This document shows positions 36,295 to 64,000 of a stretch of DNA of 64,000 nucleotides, piece by piece (the stretch's first letter is position 1; the number at the start of each line of letters is the position of its first letter). Source of the stretch: Bacteroidales bacterium (GTDB taxonomy: Bacteria; Bacteroidota; Bacteroidia; Bacteroidales; UBA12077); contig DAOWGM010000155.1 in the NCBI GenBank assembly GCA_030637515.1, positions 12,532 to 76,531 of the forward strand, given 5' to 3'. Under the pieces are notes generated by a model, which did not search any database, had not been told where the DNA came from, and was given only the letters and a program-made list of their open reading frames with translations. The position numbers and the translations under genes are program-made.

Positions 36295-37194
36295 TTATAT
36301 TTTATGTACTAATTTCAGTTGATAATTACCGCAAATAAAACGAGATATTTTTTTCAAATCCTTTCCTGCCCCACATTCATAAAATTCAGTTACATTCTTT
36401 TCAATTATTATTTGCATCGTTCCAAACCAGTTAATTTTTCTTGTTAAGTTAAAAACCAACTCTTTTTTTAACTCAGCAGCTTCTGTAATTTCTCTTTGAT
36501 CAAATGTTGAGATTATTGGACAACGTGGAGTTTTTATCTGTAAAGAATCTACAAATGAGGCAAATTCATCAGAATATTTCAACATATATTCAGAATGATA
36601 AGGTGTATTTACGGTTAATTCTGTCGTAGAAAGTGCTCCTTCATTCTTAGCTTCTCTTAGTATTTTTTTGATCTCCCTTTTTTTACCTGCAACAACTAAA
36701 GAATACTCATTATTGATATTAATTATTTCTGTTGTATGGTTCGTATTATTAATTAGAATATTAACATCATCTATTGATAATCCTATAATTGATCCCATTC
36801 CATAATCTTCAGACACTCTTAATTCTTCGGTCAGATCAAATGCGGACTTAATAATTCTTATGCCATCAGAAAAAGAAATAGCTCCAGTAGAATATAAAGC
36901 AGCGTAAATACCCATGCTGTATCCAGCAACAAAATTTGGTTTTAGGTCCTTTAATAAAAGAATATCACTTATTGAACAACTAAAAATATAAGCAAGTAGC
37001 TGAGATAGAAATTCATTATTCTGGTATTCGTTGTTTTCGTAGGCAAATTCGGGTAAGTTATAGCCAATAAGCTCAGAAGCTTTATTAATATAGCTTGATA
37101 AACTGAGATTATTTCTTTGTATAAAATCAAGCTCTTTACCGGTAAATTCAGTAATAAATGCAGGAAATACGAATGCTGTTTTATTACTCATCAC
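36295..37194 (-). CDS. FabD-like ACP acyltransferase (atypical)
   Basis: AFVFP, GYSMG (catalytic Ser) and PYHS. Lacks GQG and the malonyl-binding Arg. Confidence 0.82.
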   Translation of the reverse strand: MMSNKTAFVFPAFITEFTGKELDFIQRNNLSLSSYINKASELIGYNLPEFAYENNEYQNNEFLSQLLAYIFSCSISDILLLKDLKPNFVAGYSMGIYAALYSTGAISFSDGIRIIKSAFDLTEELRVSEDYGMGSIIGLSIDDVNILINNTNHTTEIININNEYSLVVAGKKREIKKILREAKNEGALSTTELTVNTPYHSEYMLKYSDEFASFVDSLQIKTPRCPIISTFDQREITEAAELKKELVFNLTRKINWFGTMQIIIEKNVTEFYECGAGKDLKKISRFICGNYQLKLVHKI

Positions 37195-37567
37195 CGTTCT
37201 TTTTTATTAACAAAACGCAGACAACTGCATATTTATCAGCTTGTTGAATATCAGCTTTAATATCTATTATTTTCAAATCATTAAATATGCCATCGATTTT
37301 TTTTGATGTATATATTTTAAAATCAGTTGGTCCTTCAAAAATGATTTCAACATCTTTAAAATCAAAATCGGAATTATTAAGTGCTTTATAAAAAGCTTCT
37401 TTAAAACAAAAGCCTTTTAAAAAGGCTTCTTTACCAAAAACTGAAAAATTTTCAATTTCTTTCGATGTAAAAAGATCATAAATAAGATCCGATAATATTC
37501 CGTTTTCGAAGTAATGCTTATCGAAACGATGAATTTCTTCAATATCGATTCCGCAACCGAATATCAT
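37184..37567 (-). CDS. 4'-phosphopantetheinyl transferase, AcpS type
   Basis: GCGIDIE, FTxxE and FxxKEAFYKAL motifs. Confidence 0.85.
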   Translation of the reverse strand: MIFGCGIDIEEIHRFDKHYFENGILSDLIYDLFTSKEIENFSVFGKEAFLKGFCFKEAFYKALNNSDFDFKDVEIIFEGPTDFKIYTSKKIDGIFNDLKIIDIKADIQQADKYAVVCVLLIKKNGDE

Positions 37568-37578
37568 TTAAATCTATT

Positions 37579-37881
37579 TTATAAGTCTAAAATACTATTC
37601 TCATGTTCAATTATAAGCAATTGCATTTTAATTAATTCACCAATAGTTTTTACCGGATTTTTAACTGCATATTTGCCTATTGTTTTTAGTTCAATATTGA
37701 GACTGTATTTCTTTTTAAAAATTTCTATTAGTTCAAGAAACATTAATGAATCGCCATCTAAATCACCAATAATATTAGAATTCTCCGATATTTCATCAAT
37801 CTCCATTTCACATTCTTCAGCAAAAAATTCAAGAATCACTTCTTTTACTTCTTCGCGCATTTTATCAGTAATCTGAGCCAT
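37579..37881 (-). CDS. Acyl carrier protein (atypical, 100 aa)
   Basis: DLDGDSLMFLEL Ppant site; acidic helices. Confidence 0.85.
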   Translation of the reverse strand: MAQITDKMREEVKEVILEFFAEECEMEIDEISENSNIIGDLDGDSLMFLELIEIFKKKYSLNIELKTIGKYAVKNPVKTIGELIKMQLLIIEHENSILDL

Positions 37882-37890: not shown

Positions 37891-38268
37891 TTATTCTGTT
37901 ATCAATTTATTAACTTCTTCTTTTGAAATTTCCTTCCATTTCGGATTTTCAAACTTATCATTGTCAATGTCAAACTCAACTATATAGAACGACTCTTGAT
38001 TAAAGGATAGTTTCGTTTTCTTATTAGGTGTATGCTCAATATAAATTAAACGTTTATAGTCTATTTCATATTTATCACAAAGTTCTTTAGCAAGTTTTGT
38101 GTTCCATTCTGTAATTGATGTACCTGGATTTTCATCAAATAAATCAGTTGCAATTACAATGGTTTCATCTTGTTTCTTTACAATTTTCAAACCACAAATT
38201 GATGGAACATCCCACAAACCATTGAAATTATATATCTGATCCTGATATTTACTAATTTTTGATTCCAT
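37891..38268 (-). CDS. Hypothetical protein within the lipid operon
   Basis: 125-aa ORF tightly packed in the operon; NPGTSIT and IEH motifs. Confidence 0.75.
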   Translation of the reverse strand: MESKISKYQDQIYNFNGLWDVPSICGLKIVKKQDETIVIATDLFDENPGTSITEWNTKLAKELCDKYEIDYKRLIYIEHTPNKKTKLSFNQESFYIVEFDIDNDKFENPKWKEISKEEVNKLITE

Positions 38269-38281: not shown

Positions 38282-39556
38282 TTAAGCAATTTTACTTTTT
38301 ACACTTTTACCAAAACTCATTTTTGATAAATCTTTTACTGGTTTTCTGAAAGTACCATCGTCAATCTCACGAGAAACTACTTTTTTCAAAAGCTTAAACA
38401 TTTTTTCTTCCTGTGTTTCATCTTTATAGAAAGTATCCCATGCATATTGATACATTTCTTGCAATCTTTCAGGGCTCATATGCTTTGGTTGATACACAAC
38501 CTGACCGGCATTATAATCGTCCCAATTTTTATTAAAAATTCGGTCTTGTTTTATTAAATCATTATAAGCCTTAGTATGTGGGAATGGAGCCAATACTGTA
38601 AACTCAGCTAAGTCAAGATCAATCTCTAATAAGAAATCTATTAATCTCTTAATATCATCTTCTGTCTGATTATCAAGACCTAACAAAATAGTTCCTTCAA
38701 CACCAATACCATAATCATGATATCTTTTTACTCTTTCTCTTATATAATCAGAAGTATCGAATACTGCTTGATAAACATACCAAGCACCAGCCTGAGCAGC
38801 TAAATCCAGAACTTCCGGTTTATCTTCAATTGTATGACTACACCATTTCTTTTTTAACGGGATCATTGCCTTAAATAAATCTTTTTCCCATTGTGTATCT
38901 TGAGCTAAGGAGTTATCAACTATAAACAGTCTGTTATTATCGATGGTTTCTAGCTCTTCGATAGCCTTATCAATTGGTCTTGGACGAAAATTCCTACCTC
39001 CCAAATATGATACAGCACAAGGATAACAACTATATTTACAACCGCGCGAAGCATGAAATAAATCAACCATCTGCACTCCTTTATGATAGTATAGATCACG
39101 GTTGTAAATTTCTCTACGTGCCGGACCAACTATTTCAATCGGTGGTAAATCATTCATATGATTGTACACTTTTTTCAATTGACCATTTCTAAAATCTTGA
39201 AAAACCTGTTCTATATGCCCTTCAGCCTCACCAAGAAATACAGAATCAGCGTGAAGTATAGTTTCTTCGGCATGCAACATAGTAGAAATACCTCCAAAAA
39301 TTACTTTTTTACCTCTTTTTCTATACTCGTCTGCAATTGCCCAACCACTTTTAATCTGAGTAGTTAACAACATAGAGATACCTACAAAATCCACGTCATC
39401 ATCATAACGCATTTCTTCAAGATTCTGATCTATAAACTCTACCTCTACATCATCAGGAATAGTTGCTGCAAATACTGCTGCTCCGTGAGGTGGCAAATTA
39501 AAAGTTGTTTGCCCTTCCAGCTTTCTCCACTTTGGAAATATTAATTGAAATTTCAT
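38282..39556 (-). CDS. B12-binding radical SAM protein
   Basis: Cobalamin-domain GG and GEAE motifs, SRGCKYSCYPC, and APFPHT. Confidence 0.9.
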   Translation of the reverse strand: MKFQLIFPKWRKLEGQTTFNLPPHGAAVFAATIPDDVEVEFIDQNLEEMRYDDDVDFVGISMLLTTQIKSGWAIADEYRKRGKKVIFGGISTMLHAEETILHADSVFLGEAEGHIEQVFQDFRNGQLKKVYNHMNDLPPIEIVGPARREIYNRDLYYHKGVQMVDLFHASRGCKYSCYPCAVSYLGGRNFRPRPIDKAIEELETIDNNRLFIVDNSLAQDTQWEKDLFKAMIPLKKKWCSHTIEDKPEVLDLAAQAGAWYVYQAVFDTSDYIRERVKRYHDYGIGVEGTILLGLDNQTEDDIKRLIDFLLEIDLDLAEFTVLAPFPHTKAYNDLIKQDRIFNKNWDDYNAGQVVYQPKHMSPERLQEMYQYAWDTFYKDETQEEKMFKLLKKVVSREIDDGTFRKPVKDLSKMSFGKSVKSKIA

Positions 39557-39607: not shown

Positions 39608-40696
39608 CTAATGCAAACTATATTCCTTCTCTGTCATCCACGACTTTAGGATGTTATTGATTTCCAGCTTGTCGCTTTCTGGCATTGTATATTTATTTTT
39701 TTGGTATTCCTTTACCGAAATCAAAAAATCACTTATTTGTTTCTCAAATCCTTCCAAAAATTCAACATTCAACTGCTTGTATATTGATTTAATTTCTTTT
39801 GTAGGATTCTTTTCTAAATCCTCAAATTTTAATTCGTAGAATCTTTCCTTAGGAAGCTTCTTTACATCTTCATCAATTTTTTTAAGCATTTTAAATAACA
39901 AAGAACTAGTGTCCTGAATATTAGGTTTTACCCATTTTCCATTCATTGCATTTTGCTTACCAACAATATCCCACATTCTTATTGTTGAAGGAACAACCTT
40001 GTGTGGATGTCGCATAATATGAATATACCTCGCTTTTGGAAAGATTTCATTTAAAATATCAATACGAAAAGAATGAAACGGACTCTTTATCAGTATAGTA
40101 TTATTATTCTCGAGAGTCAATTTTTTGTAAAAATATTTTACAGCTTCTTTCCATTCTTCTAATTTCTTTCCTTCAGGTAAAAAATCAGGAAATTGATCTA
40201 AGAAATATTCTTTTGATTTTGGAAAAATTAAGCGCTCCAATGGTGAATAACTACACAATCTAAAAAGTGCGTATTCATCTTCCAAAGGCTCATCCATACT
40301 GAGTTTCACCTGATCCATTGGTCGAGTTCCCTTTAATGCTCGACCCATAATAGGTTCATATGACTTTCGGGAAGTTAGAAAACTATCGGGTATTGATCCT
40401 TGAAATACATTAGTAGTTACCAAATTAGCGTCAAGAGCCAACAGTTGATGTAAAAATGTACTTCCTGTTCTCCAGTGTCCAATAATTATTATTGGATCTT
40501 CAGGTAATTTATGAGTTTTAATTTTATTGGCATAAACCGACTTTTCTTTTCTGTAAAATATAGAAGCCCACACTCCATTTTGAAAAAGAAATAAGAACCT
40601 TACCAGATATTTTGGATACAACGACATTCCATTTTTCATAATAAGTTTTATGAACCTGGATAGTCTCATCCCTGCTATCAGGTAAGCACTCTTCAT
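39608..40696 (-). CDS. PAPS-dependent sulfotransferase (Sulfotransfer_3 type)
   Basis: 5'-PSB loop GHWRTGSTFL, RPMD, PxEDE, KSPxH, RHP and FEDL motifs. Confidence 0.9.
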   Translation of the reverse strand: MKSAYLIAGMRLSRFIKLIMKNGMSLYPKYLVRFLFLFQNGVWASIFYRKEKSVYANKIKTHKLPEDPIIIIGHWRTGSTFLHQLLALDANLVTTNVFQGSIPDSFLTSRKSYEPIMGRALKGTRPMDQVKLSMDEPLEDEYALFRLCSYSPLERLIFPKSKEYFLDQFPDFLPEGKKLEEWKEAVKYFYKKLTLENNNTILIKSPFHSFRIDILNEIFPKARYIHIMRHPHKVVPSTIRMWDIVGKQNAMNGKWVKPNIQDTSSLLFKMLKKIDEDVKKLPKERFYELKFEDLEKNPTKEIKSIYKQLNVEFLEGFEKQISDFLISVKEYQKNKYTMPESDKLEINNILKSWMTEKEYSLH

Positions 40697-40733: not shown

Positions 40734-41009
40734 TTATTCCGATTTGCTTTTAATAAAATCAGCAATCGAATTTACATCTTTTAGTACCTCACGAGCCAAA
40801 TTTTGATCATCAATGCGTACTTTAAAATCTCTCTGAATTGCCATAACAAGTTCTATTGCATCGATTGAATCTAATCCTAAAGTATTGTCTCCTCCGAAAA
40901 GTGGTAGGTCATCTTCAATATCCTGCGGAGTTATATCCTGTATATTTAATGTATCAATAATCATTTTTTTAATATCCGCCTTCAAATCTGTTCCAATATT
41001 TTCTCCCAT
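40734..41009 (-). CDS. Acyl carrier protein (aryl-polyene type)
   Basis: PLFGGDNTLGLDSIDAIEL; paralogous to 55382-55636. Confidence 0.92.
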   Translation of the reverse strand: MGENIGTDLKADIKKMIIDTLNIQDITPQDIEDDLPLFGGDNTLGLDSIDAIELVMAIQRDFKVRIDDQNLAREVLKDVNSIADFIKSKSE

Positions 41010-41022: not shown

Positions 41023-42036
41023 TTAAATATTACTAACTACTGTTTTTAATTCATTATAAAAAGCTTCCTCAGAATCAGCTCTTTCATTAATCATTTGACC
41101 TAGTTCCTGAAGTTTTTCAGGTCCAAGATCTCTGTTTTTTCCAATTTTGGCTGCAAAGTAAGAAATATTTCTCCAACCATCTCCTATTTCCATCATCTTT
41201 TTTGACATATCTTCTAATTCTTTATTCTGTAGAATTTCAGATGCTTGACGAAGAAATGTGGCATATAAAAAACGGAATCCACCCCCACCTGTTCCTTGAT
41301 CTTCAAGAAAAACATTTATTTTCATCACCTCATGCGATAAATGATCAATATCTCTTGTTAATTTTGGCCATCCTTGTAGTTTCTTAGCAAAAGTTCGAAT
41401 ACCTCGCACACCAATAAACGGAGGTTGAACACCCACCATATTATTAACAGTATTTTTTATTGCAACAGGAATTAGCTTCTTATAATCAACTGTTTCAGGC
41501 ACAGATTCTATATAATATCTAAATCCTTTTGGAGCTAAATATCCACCAGCAAAACGAGCCTTTCTTAAATTATCTTTATGAATTCGAGCAAATTTGGGGT
41601 AATAGCTATCACTAACAATATATTCATCACCTTCTTTTCCAACTATAGTAATAAAGTGAATATTAGCATGAACTCTTTCCCATTGAGGAATATAATCCAT
41701 ATAATAAAAGTCTACTTGACAAGCAACAGGTATGTTATTCTCTAAAAGACTGTCAAGTTCTTGCTCAGCTTCATCTTGATTTTTAAATCGTTGAGTATTA
41801 AATTTAATATCAGTTCTCTTTGCAATTTTCTTTCTTAATTTCCCTGGTTTTGTTCTTAAAATAAACATAGGAAAATTAAGATTTGGTGTTCGGCTTAAAT
41901 AGCCAAAATATAAACCACTACCCAAACCAAAAATCATTGGTTCAGTAATTTCCAGACCCTGATGTTTTAGTAATGCTGTTAATGAGCCAGACTCACAATG
42001 AGCTGCCATATTGTGTTTAAAAGATTCTATTATCAT
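41023..42036 (-). CDS. BtrH N-terminal domain / DUF4872 protein (papain-like acyltransferase or peptidase), copy 1
   Basis: HCESG, EPMIFGLGSG, H and SD triad residues, and EDQGTGGGGFRFLYA. Confidence 0.85.
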   Translation of the reverse strand: MIIESFKHNMAAHCESGSLTALLKHQGLEITEPMIFGLGSGLYFGYLSRTPNLNFPMFILRTKPGKLRKKIAKRTDIKFNTQRFKNQDEAEQELDSLLENNIPVACQVDFYYMDYIPQWERVHANIHFITIVGKEGDEYIVSDSYYPKFARIHKDNLRKARFAGGYLAPKGFRYYIESVPETVDYKKLIPVAIKNTVNNMVGVQPPFIGVRGIRTFAKKLQGWPKLTRDIDHLSHEVMKINVFLEDQGTGGGGFRFLYATFLRQASEILQNKELEDMSKKMMEIGDGWRNISYFAAKIGKNRDLGPEKLQELGQMINERADSEEAFYNELKTVVSNI

Positions 42037-42533
42037 TTTTTGTTTAATTCTATTTTTGTGATAACTACGAAAGGATTTTCTGTTCTTGTTTGTTTAACCA
42101 GTATTGGTTGCTTCTGTTTATCTGACTCCGCTTTGGTCTCATTATCTTCAACTACAATAGCTTGAAATAAATTAGAAACCGGTATGTCAAAAGCATATGC
42201 ATATTTATATAAGTCTGCCAATTTTGCTTTTCTGAATGATTTTACTTTTTGATGTTGTTTCACCTTAAATACAGGAATCCCGGTTCTTCGAGATAATTCA
42301 ACATCATTAAAATCATGAATTAGCTTATAAAAATAAACTGGGGTAATTTCATTTTTTTTGAGTTTCTCTAGTAATGAATTTCTTAATTTCATCATTTTCT
42401 CCCAGAAATCGTCAAGATAATTTTTGGTTATATACGAGCCTGTCTGAATCGGACCAAATGTTCCATCTTCCTTTTCAACATACATTATAAGTTGTTGAGG
42501 TTCGTAATCAATATAAGCATCTTTTTCTTTCAT
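42033..42533 (-). CDS. Hypothetical protein with C-terminal HTH-like region, copy 1
   Basis: Paralog of 49529-49933; stop overlaps the BtrH start by 4 nt. Confidence 0.75.
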   Translation of the reverse strand: MKEKDAYIDYEPQQLIMYVEKEDGTFGPIQTGSYITKNYLDDFWEKMMKLRNSLLEKLKKNEITPVYFYKLIHDFNDVELSRRTGIPVFKVKQHQKVKSFRKAKLADLYKYAYAFDIPVSNLFQAIVVEDNETKAESDKQKQPILVKQTRTENPFVVITKIELNKK

Positions 42534-42838
42534 GTAAATTATATTTCAATCCGATTCAAAAATTATGTTTTCGGCCGATGATTTAGATTCTTACAGCAAT
42601 GTAGTAAAAACTATGCCATTTTTTTGGTCTACTAAATTAATTCAAATTAAATTATTGCCAAAATTAATACAAACAAACAATTTGAAATTTAAATGATTTA
42701 ACCACTATTTATAAGCATTATAGAAGTATTTACAAATTAATATTTCATAAAATAATCTGTTCATGTAACCATATTGATATTTGATAAAAAATATTGACTA
42801 AAAGGATTCGTAATCTAAGGAATATTAAAAGTATTTAT

Positions 42839-42846
42839 TAAATTTG
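42839..42846 (+). promoter_or_regulatory. Candidate -7 element for the TAL-PKS operon
   Basis: TAAATTTG within the 384-bp divergent intergenic region. Confidence 0.45.
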
Positions 42847-42917
42847 CATACTTACAAAATGACAGATGAACTAAACGGCTAATTATTAGCTACTTTAACG
42901 TATAACGAAGAATAAAA

Positions 42918-44459
42918 ATGATAATTATAGGGGGTGAGAATCTTAATCTTAATGATTTTTACAAAATTCTTTTTGAAAGTGAAAAGATTGATTTAGATAA
43001 AAACGCACTAAAAAAAGTACAAGAAAGTTACAATTTTTTAGATGATTTTTCGAAGAACAAAGTAATATATGGCATAAATACGTGCTTTGGTCCAATGGCA
43101 CAATATAAGATTAGCGACGACGACCAAAAAACACTTCAATACAACCTCATTCGCAGTCACGCTGCTGGTTCAGGAAATACCTTACCAAACATTTATGTGA
43201 AAGCATTAATGATTGGTCGTTTAAATACTTTCATGAAAGGGTTTTCAGGAGTACATGAAGAAGCTATTTTTCTATTAAAAGAATTTATTAATAAAGATAT
43301 TTATCCTAAAATATTTGAACACGGTGGTGTTGGAGCAAGTGGAGATTTAGTTCAATTAGCACATTTAGCTCTTAATCTTATTGGTGAAGGAGAAATATGC
43401 TTCGATGGTGAATTTAGACCTGCACAAGAAGTTTTTAAAGCAAATAACTTAGAACCTTTAAAAGTTCATTTAAGAGAAGGCTTAGCTTTAATAAACGGAA
43501 CTTCATGCATGACAGGTATAAGCATTATCAATCTAATTCATGCAAAGAATCTATTAAACTGGTCTTTAATTTCTTCCAGTTTAATTAACGAAGTTGTTGA
43601 ATCTGCCGACGATCATTTTTCAGAAGAACTAAATCAGGTTAAACTGCACGAAGGACAAAACCTTATTGCTGAAGAAATACGAAAAATAGTTGACTCAAGT
43701 AAGCTCATTAAGAAAAGATCGGACTTATTTTATAACAACCATCACGATGTTGGAGTAATCAAAGTTAAAGTTCAGGAATATTATTCGCTTCGTTGTGTAC
43801 CTCAAGTATTAGGTCCTATATACGAAACTATAGCAAATGCTGAAAAGGTTATTATAAATGAAGTAAATTCTGTTAATGATAATCCTATAATTGATAAAGA
43901 GAATGGTGATGTGCTTCATGGTGGTAATTTCCATGGAGATTATATTTCTCTTGAAATGGACAAACTAAAAATTGTAACAACGAAGTTGTCTATGTTGGTT
44001 GAACGCCAAATTAACTATTTGTTCAATGAAAAGATAAACGAGAAATTCCCTCCATTTGCAAACCTTGGAACAATTGGTTTAGATTTAGGATTACAAGCAG
44101 CACAGTTTACAGCAACATCAACAACTGCAGAAAATCAGACCTTATCTAATCCAATGTATGTTCATAGCATTCCTAACAATGGCGATAATCAAGACATTGT
44201 GAGTATGGGTACTAATTCTGCATTAATCACAAAGAAAGTAATTGAAAACTCGTTTGAAATATTATCAATCAAATACATGAGTTTACTTCAGGTAATCGAT
44301 TATATGGAATTCCAAGAAAGATTATCGGATATAGGAAAGAAACTTTATAAGGAAATGAGAGCAATTGTTCCTAAAATTGTAAAAGACGTTCCATTGTATC
44401 CACATATTGAAAACATCAAACAATATTTAATAAAAACCAGACCAAATCTAATAAACTAA
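42918..44459 (+). CDS. Aromatic amino acid ammonia-lyase, probably tyrosine ammonia-lyase
   Basis: MIO-forming GASGDL; LQYNLIRSH, YSLRCVPQ, NDNP and GGNFHG. Closely resembles my recollection of the Flavobacterium johnsoniae TAL, and the PKS context fits. Confidence 0.88.
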   Translation: MIIIGGENLNLNDFYKILFESEKIDLDKNALKKVQESYNFLDDFSKNKVIYGINTCFGPMAQYKISDDDQKTLQYNLIRSHAAGSGNTLPNIYVKALMIGRLNTFMKGFSGVHEEAIFLLKEFINKDIYPKIFEHGGVGASGDLVQLAHLALNLIGEGEICFDGEFRPAQEVFKANNLEPLKVHLREGLALINGTSCMTGISIINLIHAKNLLNWSLISSSLINEVVESADDHFSEELNQVKLHEGQNLIAEEIRKIVDSSKLIKKRSDLFYNNHHDVGVIKVKVQEYYSLRCVPQVLGPIYETIANAEKVIINEVNSVNDNPIIDKENGDVLHGGNFHGDYISLEMDKLKIVTTKLSMLVERQINYLFNEKINEKFPPFANLGTIGLDLGLQAAQFTATSTTAENQTLSNPMYVHSIPNNGDNQDIVSMGTNSALITKKVIENSFEILSIKYMSLLQVIDYMEFQERLSDIGKKLYKEMRAIVPKIVKDVPLYPHIENIKQYLIKTRPNLIN

Positions 44460-44464: not shown

Positions 44465-45193
44465 ATGAAATTTGCTTTAGTAACAGGAGGTTCAAGAGGA
44501 ATTGGAAAAGCAATATGTTTAAAAATTGCTGAATTAGGATATCATATTTTAGTTAATTACAGAAGTAATAATCAAGAAGCAGAAGATACACTAAATCAGA
44601 TTAAAACATTAGGAGGTTCAGGTGAACTGATGAAATTTGATGTTTCTAATTCTGATGAAATTAGAGCTTCATTAGACAAATGGAAAGAGAACAATCCTGA
44701 ATCAGTTATTGAAGTGTTAATTAATAACGCTGGCATAAGAAAAGATGCCTTAATTGTGTGGATGAAAGACGAAGATTGGAAGGATGTTTTAAACACAAAT
44801 CTGGATAGTTTTTATTATATTACAAAACATTTAGTACAAGATATGATTGTTAACAGATATGGGAGAATTGTTAACGTTGTTTCATTATCTGGTATTAAAG
44901 GTTTGCCCGGACAAACAAATTATTCGGCAGCTAAAGGTGGCGTAATTGCTGCAAGCAAAGCTTTAGCTCAAGAAATTGCAAAAAAGAACGTAACTGTAAA
45001 TTGTGTTGCTCCTGGTTTTATTAAAACAGATATGACACAAGAATTGGAAGAGAAAGATTTAAAACGTCTTATTCCAATGAGTCGATTTGGTAATGCTGAA
45101 GAAGTTGCTGATGTTGTTGCTTTTCTTGCTTCACCGAAAGCATCTTATGTAACAGGAGAAGTAGTTTCTATAAACGGAGGACTTTATACATAA
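44465..45193 (+). CDS. fabG: 3-oxoacyl-ACP reductase
   Basis: TGGSRGIG, NNAG, YSAAK and VAPGFIKT motifs. Confidence 0.93.
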   Translation: MKFALVTGGSRGIGKAICLKIAELGYHILVNYRSNNQEAEDTLNQIKTLGGSGELMKFDVSNSDEIRASLDKWKENNPESVIEVLINNAGIRKDALIVWMKDEDWKDVLNTNLDSFYYITKHLVQDMIVNRYGRIVNVVSLSGIKGLPGQTNYSAAKGGVIAASKALAQEIAKKNVTVNCVAPGFIKTDMTQELEEKDLKRLIPMSRFGNAEEVADVVAFLASPKASYVTGEVVSINGGLYT

Positions 45194-46443: not shown

Positions 46444-46471
46444 ATTTATTAACCGGGAGACATTATAAGAC

Positions 46472-54655: not shown

Positions 54656-54746
54656 CAGTCAATGACTGAAATAAATATTGAGAAACTCCTGAATATATTG
54701 CATATTTAGTAGCACAATATTAAAGTCAGTTGAAATAAGATAAGCA

Positions 54747-55379: not shown

Positions 55380-55381
55380 AA

Positions 55382-55636: not shown

Positions 55637-55661
55637 CACAATTTAGTTGAAGGGTTAGTAG

Positions 55662-56861: not shown

Positions 56862-56862
56862 T

Positions 56863-57927
56863 ATGGAAGTTTATATACAAGGTATAGGTAATATATCTCC
56901 TCAAAATACTGTGGACAGTAACATTTTTTTAGATGATGTTGTTAGTCACGAAACAGAATTTATTTTATCTATTGCTCCTAATTACAAAGAATTTATAAAT
57001 CCTATTCAACTTCGCCGTATGAGTAAGTTGATAAAAATGGGAATAAGTGCCTCAAAAATTTGTTTAGCTGATGCTGGAATTGAAAACCCGGGAGCAATTA
57101 TTACAGGAACCGGTTTAGGTCTTGTTGGCGATACAGAGAAGTTCCTGAATATGGTAATTGATAATGACGAAGAGCTTCTTGCTCCTACTGCATTTATTCA
57201 ATCTACTCATAATACAATTAGTGGACAGGTAGCAATTGCACTTAAATGTTTTAACTATAACAATACCTATTCTCATCGTGGATTTTCTTTTGAAAGTGCT
57301 CTACTTGACGGAATGCTTTTAATAAATGATAAAGATGCTGAAAATGTATTAGTTGGTGGTTTTGACGAGATTACACCTGAGCATCATCAAATTATTAAAA
57401 AAACGCGTTGGGTAAAAAATGAGACAATTAAAAGTTTAGAACTTTTAGATCATAAAACTCAGGGTACAGTTGTTGGCGAAGGTGTTGGATTCTTTTCTTT
57501 AACTGGAAAAAAAGATGAAAACACGTATGCCAGGTTAAAAAATATAAAAACCATATATAAGCCTGAAAGTAAAGAAGAAATTGAAACTAAAATAGATCAG
57601 TTTCTTACTGAAAATGGTTTATCAAAAGATGATATTGATTTAGTTGTATTAGGATTAAATGGAAATGTTGATACAGATGATATTTATTATCATTTAGCTG
57701 ATAATTATTTTAACACCAATTATGCTTATTTCAAGCATCTTTCTGGTGATTATCATACAGTTGGAACATTTGCTTTGTGGTTTGCTGCAAATACTATAAA
57801 ACATCAGAAAGTACCTGAAGTTGCTCGTTTCAGAAAAGAAAACTTTACTGAAAAGCCAATAAAAAATGTATTGGTATATAATCATTTTAGAGAAGTTGAT
57901 CACTCCATATTTTTATTAGCTCAATGA
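56863..57927 (+). CDS. Beta-ketoacyl synthase chain-length factor
   Basis: RRMS, PTAFIQSTHN and GEG motifs; lacks the catalytic Cys. Confidence 0.88.
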   Translation: MEVYIQGIGNISPQNTVDSNIFLDDVVSHETEFILSIAPNYKEFINPIQLRRMSKLIKMGISASKICLADAGIENPGAIITGTGLGLVGDTEKFLNMVIDNDEELLAPTAFIQSTHNTISGQVAIALKCFNYNNTYSHRGFSFESALLDGMLLINDKDAENVLVGGFDEITPEHHQIIKKTRWVKNETIKSLELLDHKTQGTVVGEGVGFFSLTGKKDENTYARLKNIKTIYKPESKEEIETKIDQFLTENGLSKDDIDLVVLGLNGNVDTDDIYYHLADNYFNTNYAYFKHLSGDYHTVGTFALWFAANTIKHQKVPEVARFRKENFTEKPIKNVLVYNHFREVDHSIFLLAQ

Positions 57928-58685
57928 TAAAACCAGGAACAACATTCGTTCTTTACATCGTTGTTTTAATCCAAGTTTATCTCTTTCTTCCTTGGAAAGG
58001 GATATTTTTTATTATAATAAGCCTGCTATTTCTAATTTATTTAATTAGCTGCTCTGCAAATATTTGCTCTCAGGCATATATAAAAACTCTTTGCAAAGCA
58101 GATACAAATCAAAAGAAAATAGCTATTACTTTTGATGATGGACCTGATCCAAAAATCACTCCGCAAGTACTCAGCATTCTTGATAAATACAATGCTAAAG
58201 CAACATTCTTCTGCATTGGAAAGCACATAGAAGATAATAAAGAACTATTAAAAGAGATTGATAAAAAAGGTCACATTATTGGTAATCATACTTGGTCGCA
58301 CGATCTATGGTTTGATTTATTCTCATATAAAAGAATGCAAGCGGATATTGAAAAAACAAATGGTCTGATATTTGAAATAATCAATAAAAAGGCAAAACTG
58401 TTTCGTCCACCTTATGGAGTTACGAATCCTGCTTTAAAAAGAGCTCTGAAAAGATTAAATTTTCAGACAATTGGATGGAGCATTCGTTCTTTAGATACTA
58501 TTAAAAGTACTGAAAAAACGCTGAAAAGAATAAAGAAAGGATTATCAACGGGCGATATTATTTTATTTCATGATAATCGAGAGCATATTGTTGATATTTT
58601 AGAATCATTTTTAGAATATGCAAAGAGCGAAAATTATGAGATTGTTACTCTTGATGAACTATTAAATATAAAAGCATATGAGTAA
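57924..58685 (+). CDS. Membrane-anchored polysaccharide deacetylase (NodB family)
   Basis: TFDDGP, HTWSH, FRPPYG and LFHD motifs. Confidence 0.92.
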   Translation: MIKPGTTFVLYIVVLIQVYLFLPWKGIFFIIISLLFLIYLISCSANICSQAYIKTLCKADTNQKKIAITFDDGPDPKITPQVLSILDKYNAKATFFCIGKHIEDNKELLKEIDKKGHIIGNHTWSHDLWFDLFSYKRMQADIEKTNGLIFEIINKKAKLFRPPYGVTNPALKRALKRLNFQTIGWSIRSLDTIKSTEKTLKRIKKGLSTGDIILFHDNREHIVDILESFLEYAKSENYEIVTLDELLNIKAYE

Positions 58686-59451
58686 AATATATAAAACGGA
58701 TTGTCATCCTGAGTTTATCGAAGGGTGGCAAGAAAGGTTTGGCAAAAAAAATAACAATGTTTATGCTTCGCATGAGAAAAGTTCGACAAGGCTCAACATG
58801 AAAGTTATTTTTTTTAGCAAAATTTTATTAATGGTTATTTTCTTTTTTAGTGCTGGAATATTACATGCACAGGAAACCGGTTTTAAGCAAGTTCAGGATA
58901 TTACCAAAGCACAAACTGAATTAGCTAAACTATCAGAGAACACGCAATCAATTCAGAGTAAGTTTGTACAAGAAAAGCATTTAAGCTTTTTAACCGAAAA
59001 TATTATATCTAAAGGAGAATTTTCTTTTAAAAGTCCAAATCAATTACGATGGGAATATTCAGAACCATTTGAATATATTATCGTTTTTAATGATAAAAAT
59101 ATTTACATAAAAGATGAAGATAAGATTAGTACATTCGATACTGAATCAAATAAAATGTTCGCCGAAATAAATAACATGATGATTGGATCCATACAAGGAG
59201 ATTTATTTACTGATACGGAGCGGTTTTCAGTACAATATTTTGAAAGCTCTACGCAATACTTATTAGAGCTTGATCCTAAGTTGCCGGAAATGAAAAGCAT
59301 GCTTAAAACCATTAAAATCTATATTGATAAATCGGATATCTCTGTTTCAAAAATTAAAATGATCGAAAGCTCCGATGATTATACCAGCATCGATTTCATA
59401 AATAAAAAATTGAATCAGCCAATTGATAATGAGAAATTTAATCTCAAATAA
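58678..59451 (+). CDS. LolA-like outer-membrane lipoprotein carrier protein
   Basis: FVQEK, SKG and LRWEY motifs. The start is uncertain (58678, 58798 or 58831) because of a palindromic insert. Confidence 0.85.
   Translation: MSKIYKTDCHPEFIEGWQERFGKKNNNVYASHEKSSTRLNMKVIFFSKILLMVIFFFSAGILHAQETGFKQVQDITKAQTELAKLSENTQSIQSKFVQEKHLSFLTENIISKGEFSFKSPNQLRWEYSEPFEYIIVFNDKNIYIKDEDKISTFDTESNKMFAEINNMMIGSIQGDLFTDTERFSVQYFESSTQYLLELDPKLPEMKSMLKTIKIYIDKSDISVSKIKMIESSDDYTSIDFINKKLNQPIDNEKFNLK
58703..58801. repeat. REP-like imperfect inverted-repeat element in the lolA-like 5' region
   Basis: Arms GTCATCCTGAGTTTATCGAA and TTCGACAAGGCTCAACATGA. Confidence 0.65.
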
Positions 59452-60169
59452 AATCCACATCAATATAATTTCCCCTTGGAGAAGGGGATTAAGGGGATCG
59501 ATAAATAGCTTTCAAACAAATCCCCCTAACCCCCTTTTAATAAAAGGGGGAATATTATTATTGGCAATTGTGATTTTCATTTCCAGTTGTTCTGCTCCCT
59601 ATAAAAACTTAAATAAAATTGAGTATTCTCCCGATCACATAAAAAATATACCTTATGCTCTTCCCTTTTCTGAAAAAACCTTAATTTATAAAACTGACAT
59701 CAGCTTTTATAAGAATGATATCAGTGGATTGTTAATCATTAAGAAAATGGATGAAAGCATTTATCGCATTGCTTTAACTACACAGTTTGGATTAAAGATT
59801 TTTGATTTTGAGCTGAATCATGGCATTCTCAATGTAAAATACTGTGTCGAATATTTAAATAAACAGCTTATCATAAATACCTTCCAGAATGATTTCAATT
59901 TGCTTTTAATGCAAAATAAATCAGAAGCTCAGTATTTGATCGATAATTCGATACAAAATCAAAAAATATGGCAATTTACATCAGGTAAATTAAACTATAA
60001 TTACATTCAAAACACTGATTCAGAAAAGATTGAAATCATTAATCTTAAAAAACGAAATTCTGAAAAAATATCTGTAGGTTTGCAAAATTACACTGATGAT
60101 ATTCCCAGAAATATTACTTTGGAACATCATAATATTAAATTGAAAATGAATTTAAAATTGATACAATAA
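59429..60169 (+). CDS. Hypothetical lipoprotein of the cluster
   Basis: Lipobox ISSC; SGLLIIKK and FGLKIFDFE motifs; overlaps the lolA-like stop. Confidence 0.78.
   Translation: MRNLISNKIHINIISPWRRGLRGSINSFQTNPPNPLLIKGGILLLAIVIFISSCSAPYKNLNKIEYSPDHIKNIPYALPFSEKTLIYKTDISFYKNDISGLLIIKKMDESIYRIALTTQFGLKIFDFELNHGILNVKYCVEYLNKQLIINTFQNDFNLLLMQNKSEAQYLIDNSIQNQKIWQFTSGKLNYNYIQNTDSEKIEIINLKKRNSEKISVGLQNYTDDIPRNITLEHHNIKLKMNLKLIQ
59470..59552. repeat. GC-rich nested palindromic (REP-like) element
   Basis: TCCCCTT-ggag-AAGGGGA-TTAAGGGGAT ... ATCCCCCTAA-CCCCCTTTT-aat-AAAAGGGGG. Confidence 0.75.
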
Positions 60170-60173
60170 GACC

Positions 60174-60548
60174 ATGCTTTTAAAAAATTTCTATACCATA
60201 GTTGAATTAGATTATAGCGATAAGGAAAATGTAAAAGCAATTATCGACTTAAATAAAGAACATGAGGTTTATGAAGGTCACTTCCCAGGGAATCCTGTAG
60301 TTCCAGGAGTTTGCCTTACTCAATTAATCAAGGAAGTAATGGAAAACGTCGAAGGCATGGATCTTAGTTTAGTTTATGCAAGTAATATTAAATTTATGGC
60401 TGTTGTTAATCCTGAAATTAATAGCCGACTTCAAATTGATCTTAAAGTTAAATATGATACTGAGCAAAACATTATAAAAGTTGATAGTATTACACATTTT
60501 AACGATCAGGTTTTTTACAAATTTAAGGGTAACTTTAAGGCAAAATAA
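60174..60548 (+). CDS. 3-hydroxyacyl-ACP dehydratase (FabZ/ApeI-like)
   Basis: GHFPGNPVVPGV and NIKF motifs. Confidence 0.9.
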   Translation: MLLKNFYTIVELDYSDKENVKAIIDLNKEHEVYEGHFPGNPVVPGVCLTQLIKEVMENVEGMDLSLVYASNIKFMAVVNPEINSRLQIDLKVKYDTEQNIIKVDSITHFNDQVFYKFKGNFKAK

Positions 60549-60560
60549 ATAACCGGAAAA

Positions 60561-61775
60561 ATGGCTGCGGATAAATACAAAGAATTATTCAGGGAGAAAA
60601 AGTGTTGTGTAATTATTCCAACTTATAATAATCATCAAACCATTGAGCAGGTTATTAATGATGTATTAGAATACACCGATCAAGTTGTTGTAGTTAACGA
60701 CGGATCAACAGATAATACAACTGAAATACTTAGGAAATTCACTCAGATTGATATTGTTAGCTATGCAAAGAATAAAGGAAAAGGGTACGCTCTAAGACAA
60801 GGATTCAAGTTCGCATGGTCAAAAGATTATCAATATGCCATTACAATTGACTCTGACGGTCAACACTTTGCCACAGATTTGCCAAACTTTGTTGAAGCGA
60901 TTGAAAAGAATCCTAATGCGATAATTATTGGAAATCGAAATATGGAGCAGGAAGGGATTCCCGGAAAGAGTAGTTTCGGAAATCGTTTTTCCAATTTTTG
61001 GTTTAAGTTCGAGACAGGGATAAAAATGCCCGACACGCAATCTGGTTATAGGTTATATCCACTCAAGCCACTAAGTAAAATGTTCTTTTTTACTCGTAAA
61101 TATGAGTTTGAAATTGAAGTAATAGTTCGTGCTGCATGGAAAGGTGTTGATGTTACAGATGTTCCAATTCAAATATATTATGCGCCCATTGAAACTCGTG
61201 TTTCTCATTTCAGACCATTTCGTGATTTCTCAAGAGTAAGTATTCTAAACACAATTCTGGTTATTTATGCTTTGCTTATTGTAAAGCCATTTGAGTTTAT
61301 ACGCAAACTGAATAAAAAAAATATTCAGGCATTTTTTCGCGATCAGATTCTTCAAAACAAAGAACCCAATATTAAAATCACTTTAGCAGTAATGCTTGGT
61401 TTATTTATGGGAGTTGCTCCTGTGTGGGGTTATCAGATGCTAATTGCATTTGCTTTGGCTCATCTTTTAAAACTGAATAAAATTATTGTTTTGGTAACTT
61501 CAAATATTAGTATTCCTCCAATGATTCCTGTTATCATATTTGCCAGTTTCAGAATTGGCGGATTATTTATTGAATCAAATAGGCTTAATGTAATATTTGA
61601 CAGAGGATTAAGTCTTGATTTAATTAAAGACAATATAGTTCAATACCTTGTAGGAAGCCTTGTATTTGGTATTATTTTAGCTGTTGTATTTGGTATTATA
61701 ACGTATATTCTACTTCTGATTTTCAGAAAAAAACCTGTACTTCAGAAAGAATTTGCAAAATCTTATCAGGATTAA
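60561..61775 (+). CDS. GT2 glycosyltransferase fused to a DUF2062 membrane domain
   Basis: IPTYNN, VNDGSTD, DSDGQH, DTQSGYR and SHFRP; hydrophobic C-terminal domain. Confidence 0.92.
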   Translation: MAADKYKELFREKKCCVIIPTYNNHQTIEQVINDVLEYTDQVVVVNDGSTDNTTEILRKFTQIDIVSYAKNKGKGYALRQGFKFAWSKDYQYAITIDSDGQHFATDLPNFVEAIEKNPNAIIIGNRNMEQEGIPGKSSFGNRFSNFWFKFETGIKMPDTQSGYRLYPLKPLSKMFFFTRKYEFEIEVIVRAAWKGVDVTDVPIQIYYAPIETRVSHFRPFRDFSRVSILNTILVIYALLIVKPFEFIRKLNKKNIQAFFRDQILQNKEPNIKITLAVMLGLFMGVAPVWGYQMLIAFALAHLLKLNKIIVLVTSNISIPPMIPVIIFASFRIGGLFIESNRLNVIFDRGLSLDLIKDNIVQYLVGSLVFGIILAVVFGIITYILLLIFRKKPVLQKEFAKSYQD

Positions 61776-61786
61776 TCTAAAAAAGA

Positions 61787-64000
61787 ATGTCTAATTTATT
61801 TAATGCTCTATACGAACTCTTTCAAAAATTTAGAATCTCATTCATATTTCTGATCCTGATTATTTTTGGATCTTCAGCATACCTTGTTACAAAAATCAAG
61901 TTCGAAGAAGATATTACCAGAATGCTTCCTTCGGATGAGAATATTCAGAGAATAAGTATGGTTTCACAGAATATCAACTTTATGGATAAGTTGATAATAA
62001 ACATTGCTTTAAGCGATACTACTCTGAATTCTGATCCACAAAAATTAATTGATTTTGCCGATCAGTTAAATGCTAAAATTTCGATTTATCAACCAGAATT
62101 AATTAAAGATATAAACTATCAGGTTTCAGATAAAATCATGTACGATGTATATGATACTTTCTTTGAAAATTTGCCTGTATTTCTTGAAGATAAGGATTAC
62201 AAAAGAATTGATAGTTTAATTCTACAATCTGCAGTTGAAAGCTCTGTAAGAAACAATTTCAAAACGCTTATTTCTCCCGCAAGTATGGTAATGAAGCAGT
62301 TCATTATGAAAGATCCGCTTCACTTTACTCCTATTATATTAGATAAGTTGAATACTTTTCAAATTGGCGATAATTATGAAATTTATAATAGCAGGATCTT
62401 TACTAAGGATAAAAAGAACCTGAGCATTTTTATTACATCAGCATTCCCATCAGGAGAAACTCAGAAAAACGGAAAACTAATTGAAATTCTTGATCAAACC
62501 ATTGATAGCCTCGAAATACAGTTTAATCAGGAAATAAACGCACAATATTATGGTGCTGCTGCAGTAGCTGTTGGAAATGCAAATCGCATTAAAAAAGACA
62601 TAAAACTTACAGTTACCATTGCATTAATTGTGCTTTTGGTATTTATGAGTTTGTTTTTCAGGAAGAAAAGCATTTTTCTTATTCTATTTCTTCCTGCAAT
62701 TTTTGGAGGGAGCTTATCTCTCGCAATTCTTTATTTGATAAAGGGTTCCATTTCAGCAATATCGCTGGGAATAGGATCTGTACTTCTTGGAATTACGGTT
62801 GATTATTCTTTACACCTATTCACACATTACCGAAGTGTAGGCGATGTAAAGAAAGTAATGAAAGATATTGCAACTCCTGTCTTAATGAGCACCTTAACAA
62901 CAGCTTCTGCATTCTTATGTTTGCTATTTGTTAGCTCAAAAGCATTGCAAGATTTAGGAATGTTTGCAGCAATTAGTGTAGTTGTGGCTGCTCTTTTTTC
63001 ATTAATTGTGCTTCCTCACTTTCTTAAGAAAAGAGATTTTGATAAAGCTCAAAAAGACAACAGGAAATCAATCATCGAAAAAATCACATCTTACCCTTAC
63101 GAAAAAAATAAATATTTAATTCTTGGAATTGTAGCATTTACAATTGTTTCCATGTTTTTCTCTGGAAAAACGTCATTTGATGGTGATATGGATAAAATGA
63201 GCTATTTGTCCGAAGATTTAAAAGCAGCTGAAAATAATCTGAATAAAATAGCTAATGTCACACTTAAATCAGTTTATCTTATAAGTACTGGAGATAATCT
63301 GCAAGAGGCATTAATGAATAACGAAAAAGCTATTCCTGAGCTTGAGAAGTTAAAGCAAGAAAACATCATTAATCAATATACTTCGGTAAGTAAAATTCTA
63401 ATTTCAGATTCACTTCAAGAAGAAAGAATCAAGAAGTGGAATTCTTTCTGGACTACCGAAAAAGTAAATAAATTGAAATTAAATCTTCAGAATGTAGGAG
63501 GAAAGTATAAGTTCAAGCCAGAAGCTTTTTCATCGTTTTATCAGTTATTAGAAAAAGACTTTGAGACTATCAATCAAGAAGACTTAGGTGAATTAAGAAA
63601 AATGTTTTTAAATGAATATATAACCGAACATGATGATATCACTACAGTTGTGAGCATATTAAAAGCAGATGAGAAAAATAAACCAATCATATACGAATCA
63701 TTTAAAAATAATGAAAGCTTAGTTGTTTTTGATAAGAAATATATGACCGATAATTTGGTGCGTGTTCTGAAAGATGATTTCAATTTACTAGTAAAACTTT
63801 CGTTGGGAATTGTTTTCTTAATCCTGCTGTTATCATTTGGAAGAATTGAATTAGCATTATTAACTTTTATTCCTATGGCTATTTCGTGGATTTGGACTTT
63901 AGGTTTAATGGGAATATTCGGAATAAAGTTCACAATCTTTAACATCATTATTTCGACTTTCATATTTGGATTAGGAATCGATTACTCGATTTTCATTATG
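61787..64000 (+). CDS. MMPL/RND-family lipid exporter, 3'-truncated (absent from the ORF track)
   Basis: Starts ATG TCT AAT (MSNLFNALY...KFEEDITRMLP); GITVDYSLH and terminal GLGIDYSIF MMPL motifs; runs off the window end. Confidence 0.9.
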   Translation, partial: MSNLFNALYELFQKFRISFIFLILIIFGSSAYLVTKIKFEEDITRMLPSDENIQRISMVSQNINFMDKLIINIALSDTTLNSDPQKLIDFADQLNAKISIYQPELIKDINYQVSDKIMYDVYDTFFENLPVFLEDKDYKRIDSLILQSAVESSVRNNFKTLISPASMVMKQFIMKDPLHFTPIILDKLNTFQIGDNYEIYNSRIFTKDKKNLSIFITSAFPSGETQKNGKLIEILDQTIDSLEIQFNQEINAQYYGAAAVAVGNANRIKKDIKLTVTIALIVLLVFMSLFFRKKSIFLILFLPAIFGGSLSLAILYLIKGSISAISLGIGSVLLGITVDYSLHLFTHYRSVGDVKKVMKDIATPVLMSTLTTASAFLCLLFVSSKALQDLGMFAAISVVVAALFSLIVLPHFLKKRDFDKAQKDNRKSIIEKITSYPYEKNKYLILGIVAFTIVSMFFSGKTSFDGDMDKMSYLSEDLKAAENNLNKIANVTLKSVYLISTGDNLQEALMNNEKAIPELEKLKQENIINQYTSVSKILISDSLQEERIKKWNSFWTTEKVNKLKLNLQNVGGKYKFKPEAFSSFYQLLEKDFETINQEDLGELRKMFLNEYITEHDDITTVVSILKADEKNKPIIYESFKNNESLVVFDKKYMTDNLVRVLKDDFNLLVKLSLGIVFLILLLSFGRIELALLTFIPMAISWIWTLGLMGIFGIKFTIFNIIISTFIFGLGIDYSIFIM

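Follow-up and report, generated by a model that had tools for sequence, protein, structure and literature searches.

What does a flexirubin-type gene cluster make once it is joined to a sulfotransferase, radical S-adenosylmethionine (SAM) enzymes and a second set of acyl-transfer genes? The question is posed by a locus in a Bacteroidales bacterium (lineage UBA12077; GenBank assembly GCA_030637515.1, contig DAOWGM010000155.1, forward-strand positions 12,532 to 76,531), of which the whole stretch of 64,000 nucleotides, hereafter the window, was analysed. Flexirubins are a chemotaxonomic marker and are regarded as pigments of aerobic Bacteroidota. The locus is likely to be a flexirubin-type aryl-polyene pigment or lipid cluster of uncultured Bacteroidales that carries a conserved accessory set modifying the product, which to judge from the genes would probably be a modified version of a known membrane pigment. 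It lies in a genome bin that is 91% complete and 7.7% contaminated. Among sequencing datasets, none of RNA is listed as matching window positions 38000-47999. The DNA dataset that best matches the locus is labelled as a cold-seep metagenome, CobS is encoded in the genome, and it is plausible from the gene content that the product is made under anoxic, B12-dependent conditions.

A preliminary description of the locus had reported at least 32 genes diverging from one intergenic region. The listing of open reading frames (ORFs) gives exactly 32, of which nine are minus-strand (36295-42533) and 23 plus-strand (42918-64000), on either side of a 384-bp gap at 42534-42917; the last plus-strand ORF is open at the window end. 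Inside the arms, neighbouring genes are never more than 51 bp (left) or 91 bp (right) apart, and some of them overlap. The TAnnTTTG motifs in the divergent region are only suggestive of promoters for the two arms, the background being 1.36 motifs per kb over both strands. Domains were called with Pfam and NCBIfam cut-offs in the window and 20 kb past its end; these scans reproduced every domain call of the preliminary description, which had left unnamed two BtrH-like/DUF4872 genes (DarH paralogs) and two DarG-family genes. Its left limit of 36295 has to be moved to approximately 30360, because the genes upstream co-vary with the cluster in related loci. Together, the two arms and these upstream genes probably constitute a single flexirubin-type cluster of approximately 43 kb, running from 30360 to the window end and a further 9 kb or so beyond it, to FlxY.

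Judged from its sequence, the right arm is a flexirubin cluster, since its proteins meet the family cut-offs and its genes are collinear with those of canonical loci, in agreement with the match to flexirubin and aryl polyene clusters made in the preliminary description. In the canonical genome G123, the genes are ordered FlxA-FlxB-ketosynthase (KS)-acyl carrier protein (ACP)-LpxL-DarA-DarB-FabZ-FabZ-DarG-DarH-ATP-binding cassette (ABC)-ABC-thioesterase (TE)-KS-R14-ACP-KS-chain length factor (CLF)-polysaccharide deacetylase (PDA)-LolA2-LolB2-dehydratase (DH)-family 2 glycosyltransferase (GT2). The right arm, the order of which also matches G211 and G159, differs from G123 in the single respect that a TIGR04072 gene (R06) replaces DarA-DarB and one FabZ. 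Alignment with the housekeeping FabF shows that Cys-His-His is kept in three ketosynthases (45220, 53447 and 55662) and that the catalytic Cys is missing in a 354-aa CLF-like protein (56863) and a 210-aa KS-fragment-like protein (54747). There are four ACPs in the cluster, all four of which have the DS(L/I) serine motif.

The gene set flxA-flxY has been defined, and the activities of FlxA and FlxY shown, in work on the flexirubin clusters of Chitinophaga pinensis (flxA-flxY with darAB) and Flavobacterium johnsoniae (Schoener et al. 2014, PMC3992019). According to the available part of that source, the clusters of these two species have in common with the present one FlxA, FlxY, FlxB, type II KS/CLF, ACPs, dehydratases, a thioesterase, PDA, an acyltransferase, LolA, a glycosyltransferase and an exporter, as well as DarA and DarB, which are found elsewhere in the genome studied here. 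The present locus differs from them in that darAB is displaced to another contig, with the TIGR04072 gene in the darAB slot, and in thirteen extra conserved genes: DarG2, DarH2, two ACPs, the sulfotransferase, L5, L6, a phosphopantetheinyl transferase (PPTase), an acyltransferase, U1, an outer-membrane barrel, U4 and a desulfoferrodoxin-like gene. The MMPL, PlsC and SAM methyltransferase domains are in one protein here; C. pinensis is described with separate acyltransferase and exporter genes (PMC3992019, available part).

The genes that appear to be missing from the right arm are found elsewhere. A check for a downstream CoA ligase or darAB, proposed in the preliminary description, recovered FlxY in the downstream flank, after CrtD-like, C45, CrtI-like and tetratricopeptide repeat genes that follow the MMPL fusion, and darA-darB on another contig of the same bin. 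DarB on this contig (C5) scores 609 bits against a cut-off of 550 for NF053539. The DarA candidate is the 309-aa ORF directly upstream; all 30 of its 30 atlas feature matches are DarA-named (best score 0.98), and, lacking any NCBIfam match, it owes its identity to these atlas features alone. NF053537 and NF053538, guessed to be DarA models from adjacent NCBIfam numbers, proved to be unrelated families. The GC content of contig C5 is 0.309, against 0.313 +/- 0.009 for the bin. Also outside the window, 3 kb downstream of FlxY, is a near-canonical FabF (L001:14540-15760, minus strand), which at 463 bits is under the TIGR03150 cut-off of 494 and over that of PRK07314.

The accessory genes recur together across related loci. 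The sulfotransferase has 622 relatives in a large protein collection, and a profile built from 16 of them led to 159 genome loci; the best 80 of these 159 were analysed with 10-kb flanks by tblastn, for which 42 proteins encoded in the window and its flank served as queries, discarding matches that covered <40% of the query or overlapped a better match. Nearly all are metagenome-assembled genomes (MAGs) labelled Bacteroidales, Marinilabiliales, Prolixibacteraceae, Draconibacterium, Rikenellaceae or Lentimicrobiaceae. Where the upstream flank extends for at least 2 kb, which is so in 70 loci, the sulfotransferase comes after DarG2-DarH2-ACP in 69; the remaining one is a contig labelled Fibrobacterota. 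Among the 49 well-flanked loci (at least 5 kb on both sides), the radical SAM gene L5 is present in 45, L6 in 44, a homolog of the outer-membrane barrel U0 within 10 kb of the sulfotransferase in 41, U4 in 32 and the third B12-radical SAM gene U1 in 24; any flexirubin-type gene is present in 44, and a strict flexirubin marker in 37.

Three layouts are seen. The divergent, two-armed layout of the window is found in 24 of the 80 loci; the second (type B) is arranged C45-L5-L6-U0-ABC permease-DarG2-DarH2-ACP-sulfotransferase-FlxY-U4, with carriers that include MAGs labelled Draconibacterium and Prolixibacteraceae (L054, L055, L067, L070, L075); and the third runs U1(-)/DarG2-DarH2-ACP-sulfotransferase-L5-L6-U0-U4 or MMPL. 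The preliminary description had raised the possibility that the two arms do not co-occur in related genomes, and they are found together in the two-armed loci, with the core module standing amid flexirubin-type genes in the two further layouts. Its claim that the flexirubin set has been added to is upheld by the absence of these additions from eight of eight canonical FlxA loci of a phylum sample, each searched over 40 kb around FlxA. By this comparison of loci, the genes of the left arm and those upstream of it form a conserved, lineage-restricted accessory set that canonical clusters lack.

Whole genomes give a similar association. In a sample of 301 genomes of the phylum, FlxA is above cut-off in 18, and both the sulfotransferase ortholog (657 bits vs 238 for the next best) and TIGR04072 are found in the window's genome only. 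A second sample comprised 121 genomes of the window's order, essentially one per family; these genomes are related and non-independent, and no P value is therefore given for co-occurrence. FlxA is present in 30 of them. The sulfotransferase is present in seven, all of them positive for FlxA and L5 and six for TIGR04072. L5 and TIGR04072 are each found in 12 genomes, 11 of which are FlxA-positive, the exception in both cases being the same 730-contig bin, and a DarH2-type gene is found in 10, of which seven are sulfotransferase-positive. Five further genomes, reached through the loci, each have FlxA, canonical DarH and DarH2.

DarB is present in 13 of the 121 genomes, including 11 of the 30 FlxA-positive and three of the seven sulfotransferase-positive ones. 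TIGR04072 was considered as a functional stand-in for DarAB, since occupancy of the slot seemed exclusive in six genomes; the order sample contradicts this, with DarB in 4/11 genomes positive for both FlxA and TIGR04072 vs 7/19 positive for FlxA and negative for TIGR04072, and with both genes present, 4 kb apart, in G350. Canonical DarH occurs without DarB in six genomes of the sample, and DarH may therefore not need a dialkylresorcinol acceptor. In G305, the genome of L075, two canonical DarH genes lie in tandem beside a TIGR04072 gene (C2:217274-219696), with no DarB at E <= 1e-80.

The sulfotransferase of the accessory set is L4. In an alignment of 16 sequences, G73-H74-W75-R76-G78-T80 (GHWRTGST) and R229-P231-S237 (RHPxxxxxS) are invariant, columns that we take to be the 5'-phosphosulfate binding (5'-PSB) and 3'-phosphate binding (3'-PB) loops for 3'-phosphoadenosine 5'-phosphosulfate (PAPS). 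Searched against the PDB, the profile finds 2z6v and 2zq5 at E ~1e-12 and the domains of CurM (4gbm) and the olefin synthase OLS (4gox) at E ~1e-7. The Sulfotransfer_3 fold and conserved PAPS-binding columns are common to all four, the similarity being distant; L4 differs from them in being consistently encoded beside an ACP and a BtrH-like enzyme and in an N-terminal extension, which is conserved and 65 residues long. The ACP is encoded by a separate adjoining gene, no alpha/beta-hydrolase thioesterase is encoded next to L4, and there is no CurM-like ACP-sulfotransferase-thioesterase polypeptide. Several relatives carry the JGI name of a lipid-alcohol sulfotransferase. PAPS supply is represented in the bin by an adenosine 5'-phosphosulfate (APS) kinase gene beside a CysD-like gene on contig C117.

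Beside the sulfotransferase are paralogs of two flexirubin-cluster proteins. DarG2 is 29% identical to DarG, DarH2 is 39% identical to DarH, and the DarG2 stop overlaps the DarH2 start. An H-C-E motif and His, Asn and Asp columns are invariant across 69 DarH2 and three DarH sequences; a sequence search of the PDB with DarH2 returned nothing relevant. BtrH acts by ACP-dependent acyl transfer, and the conserved DarH2 columns fit a papain-fold transfer of this kind. The origin of the names DarG and DarH was not traced in the literature. The module order DarG-DarH-ABC-ABC-...-ACP-KS of the window is also that of the arcuflavin dar cluster of Azoarcus sp. BH72, in which a conserved hypothetical gene (darD), a BtrH-like darE, an ABC transporter, an ACP and a ketosynthase stand beside darAB (PMC3949708, available part). 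That cluster is proteobacterial and xanthomonadin-type, with a chorismate-derived starter instead of one made by tyrosine ammonia-lyase, and the passage of the source around its gene table mentions neither a sulfotransferase nor a radical SAM gene (PMC3949708). Further along the left arm, the acyltransferase L9 has GYSMG in place of GHSLG.

Of all the accessory genes, L5 is the best conserved, with 68-93% identity where the sulfotransferase has 42-91%, and a mean column identity of 82% over loci in which sulfotransferase identity to the query is as low as 42-50%. The preliminary description had called L5 a B12-radical SAM enzyme. The CX3CX2C motif is there and is invariant in the alignment; the match to the B12-binding domain is marginal (33.6 bits vs 32.1) and that to Radical_SAM is just below the gathering score (28.8 vs 29.5), and L5 may not bind B12 at all. 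Its nearest solved chain is AprD4 (6fd2, E 1.3e-6), presumably a dehydratase and not a methylase. The right-arm enzyme R06 gives clearer matches (B12-binding 48 bits, Radical_SAM 71 bits, motif CPYNCIYC), and its nearest solved chain is TsrM (6wte, E 2.7e-28). Two B12-radical SAM enzymes had been counted in the locus; both proteins bear the motif, and the count becomes three with U1, all three keeping CX3CX2C.

L5 is predicted to act with L6, the gene for which follows it in 44 of the 49 well-flanked loci. The L5-L6 complex model scores 0.78 (0.78, 0.78 and 0.80 in separate runs) against 0.00 for the best control, and was built from alignments of our own. Of 80 solved complexes, 58 attain this mark, as do 2 of 110 mismatched pairs. 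At least 73% of contacts are common to the runs, and the pLDDT (predicted local distance difference test) of the partner is at least 86. The modelled interface includes L5 residues 176-178, within the cluster-binding motif, with conserved residues of L6 sitting on the L5 loop that carries CX3CX2C. Thus modelled, the complex supports binding of L5 and L6 to each other, and the predicted pair would be an instance of a radical SAM enzyme that has a small partner protein of its own, belonging to a family as yet without a name.

L6 itself matches nothing in Pfam or NCBIfam. Its structure model has a pLDDT of 85 and no clear fold match: the searches gave a best E of 8e-3 (TM 0.32) with Foldseek against the PDB and a best Z of 5.9 (half of histidine racemase) in a wide VIA search, within the stated noise range; in the atlas, the best score is 0.78, to a 'hypothetical' entry. 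By profile search, L6 is a member of a wider, sizeable unnamed family, with 1447 cluster representatives at E <= 1e-3, 371 at E <= 1e-10 and 14 at E <= 1e-30. Its relatives are mostly of 110-150 aa, and some form the C-terminal part of proteins of 250-380 aa. A cluster-name look-up for eight proteins returned no informative names.

Among the genes upstream of the left arm, U1 is above no NCBIfam cut-off, and U4 has no Pfam or NCBIfam match. A U4 homolog adjoins FlxY in type-B loci and is also found near FlxA in the canonical genome G123. The desulfoferrodoxin-like protein is conserved beside the accessory genes in many related loci and, because it is exported, is unlikely to be a classical superoxide reductase. 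Directly upstream of the first cluster-associated gene is a flavin reductase-like gene (29744-30313, plus strand; Flavin_Reduct 95 bits). Approximately 7 kb upstream of the cluster, a gene for a ComB-type 2-phosphosulfolactate phosphatase (22693-23418, minus strand; 233 bits) has as neighbours a class-V aminotransferase, a 2-hydroxyacid dehydrogenase and a DUF1015 gene, and this region may be a sulfolactate or cysteate-related operon.

Table 1. Features of the cluster and its flanks, in window positions; scores are in bits, followed by the cut-off where one applies.
Feature	Position	Strand	Basis or remark
U0, 783-aa outer-membrane, TonB-dependent-receptor-like protein	30360..32711	+	CarboxypepD_reg and weak Plug (Pfam)
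U1, third B12-binding radical SAM enzyme, weakly HpnR/BchE-like	32846..34183	+	B12-binding 55.7, Radical_SAM 62.3; CX3CX2C at residue 220
Exported desulfoferrodoxin-like protein, 126 aa	34992..35372	+	Weak domain match, 34.6; N-terminal signal-like segment
U4, 203-aa exported protein, no known family	35425..36036	+	N-terminal hydrophobic segment
L9, divergent FabD/MdcH-like acyl (malonyl) transferase	36295..37194	-	Acyl_transf_1 42; FabD 156 vs 261
L8, AcpS-type 4'-phosphopantetheinyl transferase	37184..37567	-	Pfam ACPS, 40.9; NCBIfam
L7, ACP (DSL motif)	37579..37881	-	Pfam PP-binding
L6, 125 aa, no named family	37891..38268	-	Predicted partner of L5
L5, radical SAM enzyme, marginal B12-binding-like N-terminal domain	38282..39556	-	CKYSCYPC at residue 173
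L4, PAPS-type sulfotransferase (Sulfotransfer_3), 362 aa, free-standing	39608..40696	-	Pfam 109 vs gathering 27
L3, ACP (DSI motif)	40734..41009	-	Pfam; NF006617-type; closest is right-arm ACP 55382, 39% identity
L2, DarH2, second BtrH-like (papain-fold) acyltransferase	41023..42036	-	NF053550, 326 vs 300
L1, DarG2, distant DarG-family protein	42033..42533	-	NF053545 48.6, NF053536 45.8, both below cut-off
Divergent intergenic region	42534..42917	.	One TAnnTTTG (Bacteroidota -7-like) motif facing each arm: 42839 (+), 42659 (-)
FlxA, tyrosine ammonia-lyase	42918..44459	+	NF053541, 820 vs 700
FlxB, FabG-type short-chain dehydrogenase/reductase (SDR) ketoreductase	44465..45193	+	NF053542, 408 vs 340
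Ketosynthase (Cys-His-His), ACP, LpxL-type acyltransferase	45220..47649	+	Pfam/NCBIfam, FabF alignment
R06, TIGR04072 'lipid biosynthesis B12-binding/radical SAM protein'	47634..49013	+	420 vs 360
FabZ-like dehydratase (48992), DarG, DarH	48992..50940	+	DarG_fam 161 vs 70; DarH 468 vs 300
ABC ATPase, permease, 4HBT thioesterase, ketosynthase, 210-aa KS-fragment-like (R14), ACP, ketosynthase, CLF-like	50940..57927	+	
Polysaccharide deacetylase, LolA2, LolB2, FabA/ApeI-like dehydratase (60174), GT2-DUF2062	57924..61775	+	LolA2 230 vs 125; LolB2 140 vs 60
MMPL exporter fusion, 1287 aa	61787..64000, on to window-equivalent 65650 (L001:319-4182)	+	PlsC-type acyltransferase and SAM methyltransferase domains
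FlxY, 4-coumarate-CoA ligase	Window-equivalent 71877-73181 (L001:10409-11713), ~8 kb past window end		NF053551, 711 vs 520

A pathway can be proposed from these assignments, with the core steps following from family membership and the published work on FlxA and FlxY, and the accessory chemistry and the product themselves being conjectural. FlxA would deaminate tyrosine to 4-coumarate, which FlxY would convert to its CoA thioester, and the KS/CLF pairs, FlxB, the two dehydratases and the ACPs would extend this starter to an aryl-polyene acyl-ACP. A dialkylresorcinol would come from DarA and DarB, the genes for which are on the other contig, and DarH, as a papain-fold ACP-dependent acyltransferase, would off-load the chain together with DarG. 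A second ACP-dependent acyl transfer would be carried out by DarG2-DarH2 and their own ACP; the adjacent PAPS-type sulfotransferase would sulfate a hydroxyl on the product or on an ACP-bound intermediate; and the L5-L6 complex would, together with the TIGR04072 enzyme R06 and with U1, perform oxygen-independent radical tailoring. The PPTase, the FabD-like transferase and the fourth ACP would serve as the pathway's own loading system, and the ABC transporter, LolA2/LolB2 and the MMPL fusion would transport the product to the outer membrane. Sulfation of the product combined with radical tailoring of its carbon skeleton is most likely, and by analogy the most likely radical SAM reaction would be C-methylation. 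The preliminary description had suggested a radical-methylated or cyclised and possibly sulfated aryl-polyene lipid, a reading that is borne out in kind for the cluster, whereas its product chemistry would be as conjectural as the steps above.

The main rival concerns the fate of the sulfate. As in CurM and OLS, the sulfotransferase could activate an ACP-bound beta-hydroxyacyl intermediate, with off-loading by DarH2 and loss of the sulfate in an elimination or decarboxylation, to leave an alkene or shortened chain that is sulfate-free. This would account for the ACP and the thioester-cleaving papain-fold enzyme that adjoin the sulfotransferase in 69 of 70 loci, and the family profile also matches the CurM and OLS domains. 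Such transient sulfation is nevertheless unlikely: the best PDB matches are the free-standing 2z6v and 2zq5, several relatives are named after the lipid-alcohol enzyme, the sulfotransferase is unfused to an ACP or thioesterase, unlike CurM, and the carrier need of DarH2 explains the ACP adjacency equally well. Less probable still is that the left arm encodes a pathway of its own, such as one for a sulfated acyl lipid, and is a mere neighbour sharing promoter space with the flexirubin cluster. The arm does have its own ACPs, PPTase and acyltransferase, the module lies far from FlxA and canonical DarH in three of the five further genomes, and 12 of the 49 well-flanked loci lack a strict flexirubin marker within 10 kb. 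Set against this, the seven sulfotransferase-positive genomes of the order sample are all FlxA-positive (7/7 vs 30/121 overall), DarG2 and DarH2 are paralogs of flexirubin-cluster genes, the other layouts flank the module with FlxY, C45, CrtD-like, GT2, MMPL and KS/CLF genes, and the left arm, having no ketosynthase, cannot build a chain alone.

The identity of R06 raises a further alternative, in which the radical SAM enzymes cyclise a polyunsaturated chain, into ladderane-like or other carbocycles, instead of methylating it. R06 is above the cut-off of TIGR04072, a family named after the 'ladder' lipid clusters of anammox bacteria. The type II fatty acid synthesis (FASII)-like 'ladderane/polyunsaturated hydrocarbon (PUHC)' clusters of anammox bacteria and Desulfotalea have in common with the present cluster a TIGR04072-family enzyme, extra ACPs, a FabZ variant, active-site-altered FabF paralogs, two phytoene-desaturase-like genes, a polysaccharide deacetylase and a SAM methyltransferase (PMC2649909 and PMC13459092, available parts). 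Here, by contrast, the set is embedded in a tyrosine-primed Bacteroidales flexirubin cluster for which no ladderane is expected, and the likeness is one of gene family and not of protein comparison with Kuenenia. Cyclisation is very improbable in our estimation. In the available parts of the sources, the TIGR04072 family is without an established function, and that of the B12-radical SAM enzymes in the anammox and Desulfotalea clusters is unproven (Rattray et al. 2009, PMC2649909; 2026 review, PMC13459092); Desulfotalea, in which synteny with the anammox clusters is seen, produced polyunsaturated hydrocarbons but not ladderanes (PMC2649909); and cyclobutane formation is merely a proposed role of a B12-dependent radical SAM enzyme, without experimental support (PMC13459092).

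A further point against cyclisation comes from precedent. Most characterised B12-radical SAM enzymes are methylases. The available part of PMC13142503 agrees on this point.

Several observations weigh against a single flexirubin-type cluster with a sulfated and radically methylated product. The nearest solved relative of L5 is presumably a dehydratase and not a methylase, and its B12-domain score is marginal. DarB is present in only three of seven sulfotransferase-positive and 11 of 30 FlxA-positive genomes, so a dialkylresorcinol is no constant partner and the DarH acceptor is uncertain; the darAB contig is moreover tied to the same organism by composition only, in a bin with 7.7% contamination. 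The near-complete genome G359 has a DarH2-type gene and no sulfotransferase at E <= 1e-60, the left arm contains no ketosynthase, and in three of the five further genomes the sulfotransferase module is on another contig or far from FlxA and canonical DarH, showing that physical linkage is not universal.

The flexirubin-type core is of a known kind, and a flexirubin-type cluster with this accessory module was not found in the literature: no publication was found joining flexirubin or aryl polyene with a sulfotransferase, radical SAM or Draconibacterium in a search that left most subscription journals outside its reach. The locus represents a widespread variant in uncultured Bacteroidales of anoxic sediments, with a relative of the sulfotransferase in 159 species-level genomes and, in the order sample, in seven of the 30 FlxA-positive families; it is distinguished by a sulfotransferase, by a second pair of acyl-transfer genes and by as many as three radical SAM enzymes. 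A product that proved to be sulfated or radically alkylated would amount to a new class of lipid and might serve as a biomarker in sediments, and the cluster would then offer a tractable non-anammox context for the function of the TIGR04072 family. It is possible, though we put it forward tentatively, that anaerobic Bacteroidales of sediments make an undescribed class of outer-membrane pigment lipids, namely flexirubin-type aryl polyenes with a sulfate ester and radical SAM-derived carbon modifications, via a portable module of DarG2-DarH2-ACP-sulfotransferase and an L5-L6 radical SAM heterodimer. If true, the role of TIGR04072 would be to tailor ACP-bound polyunsaturated chains in general and would not be specific to ladderanes, and radical SAM modification of ketoacyl-type lipids would have a third example in this cluster.

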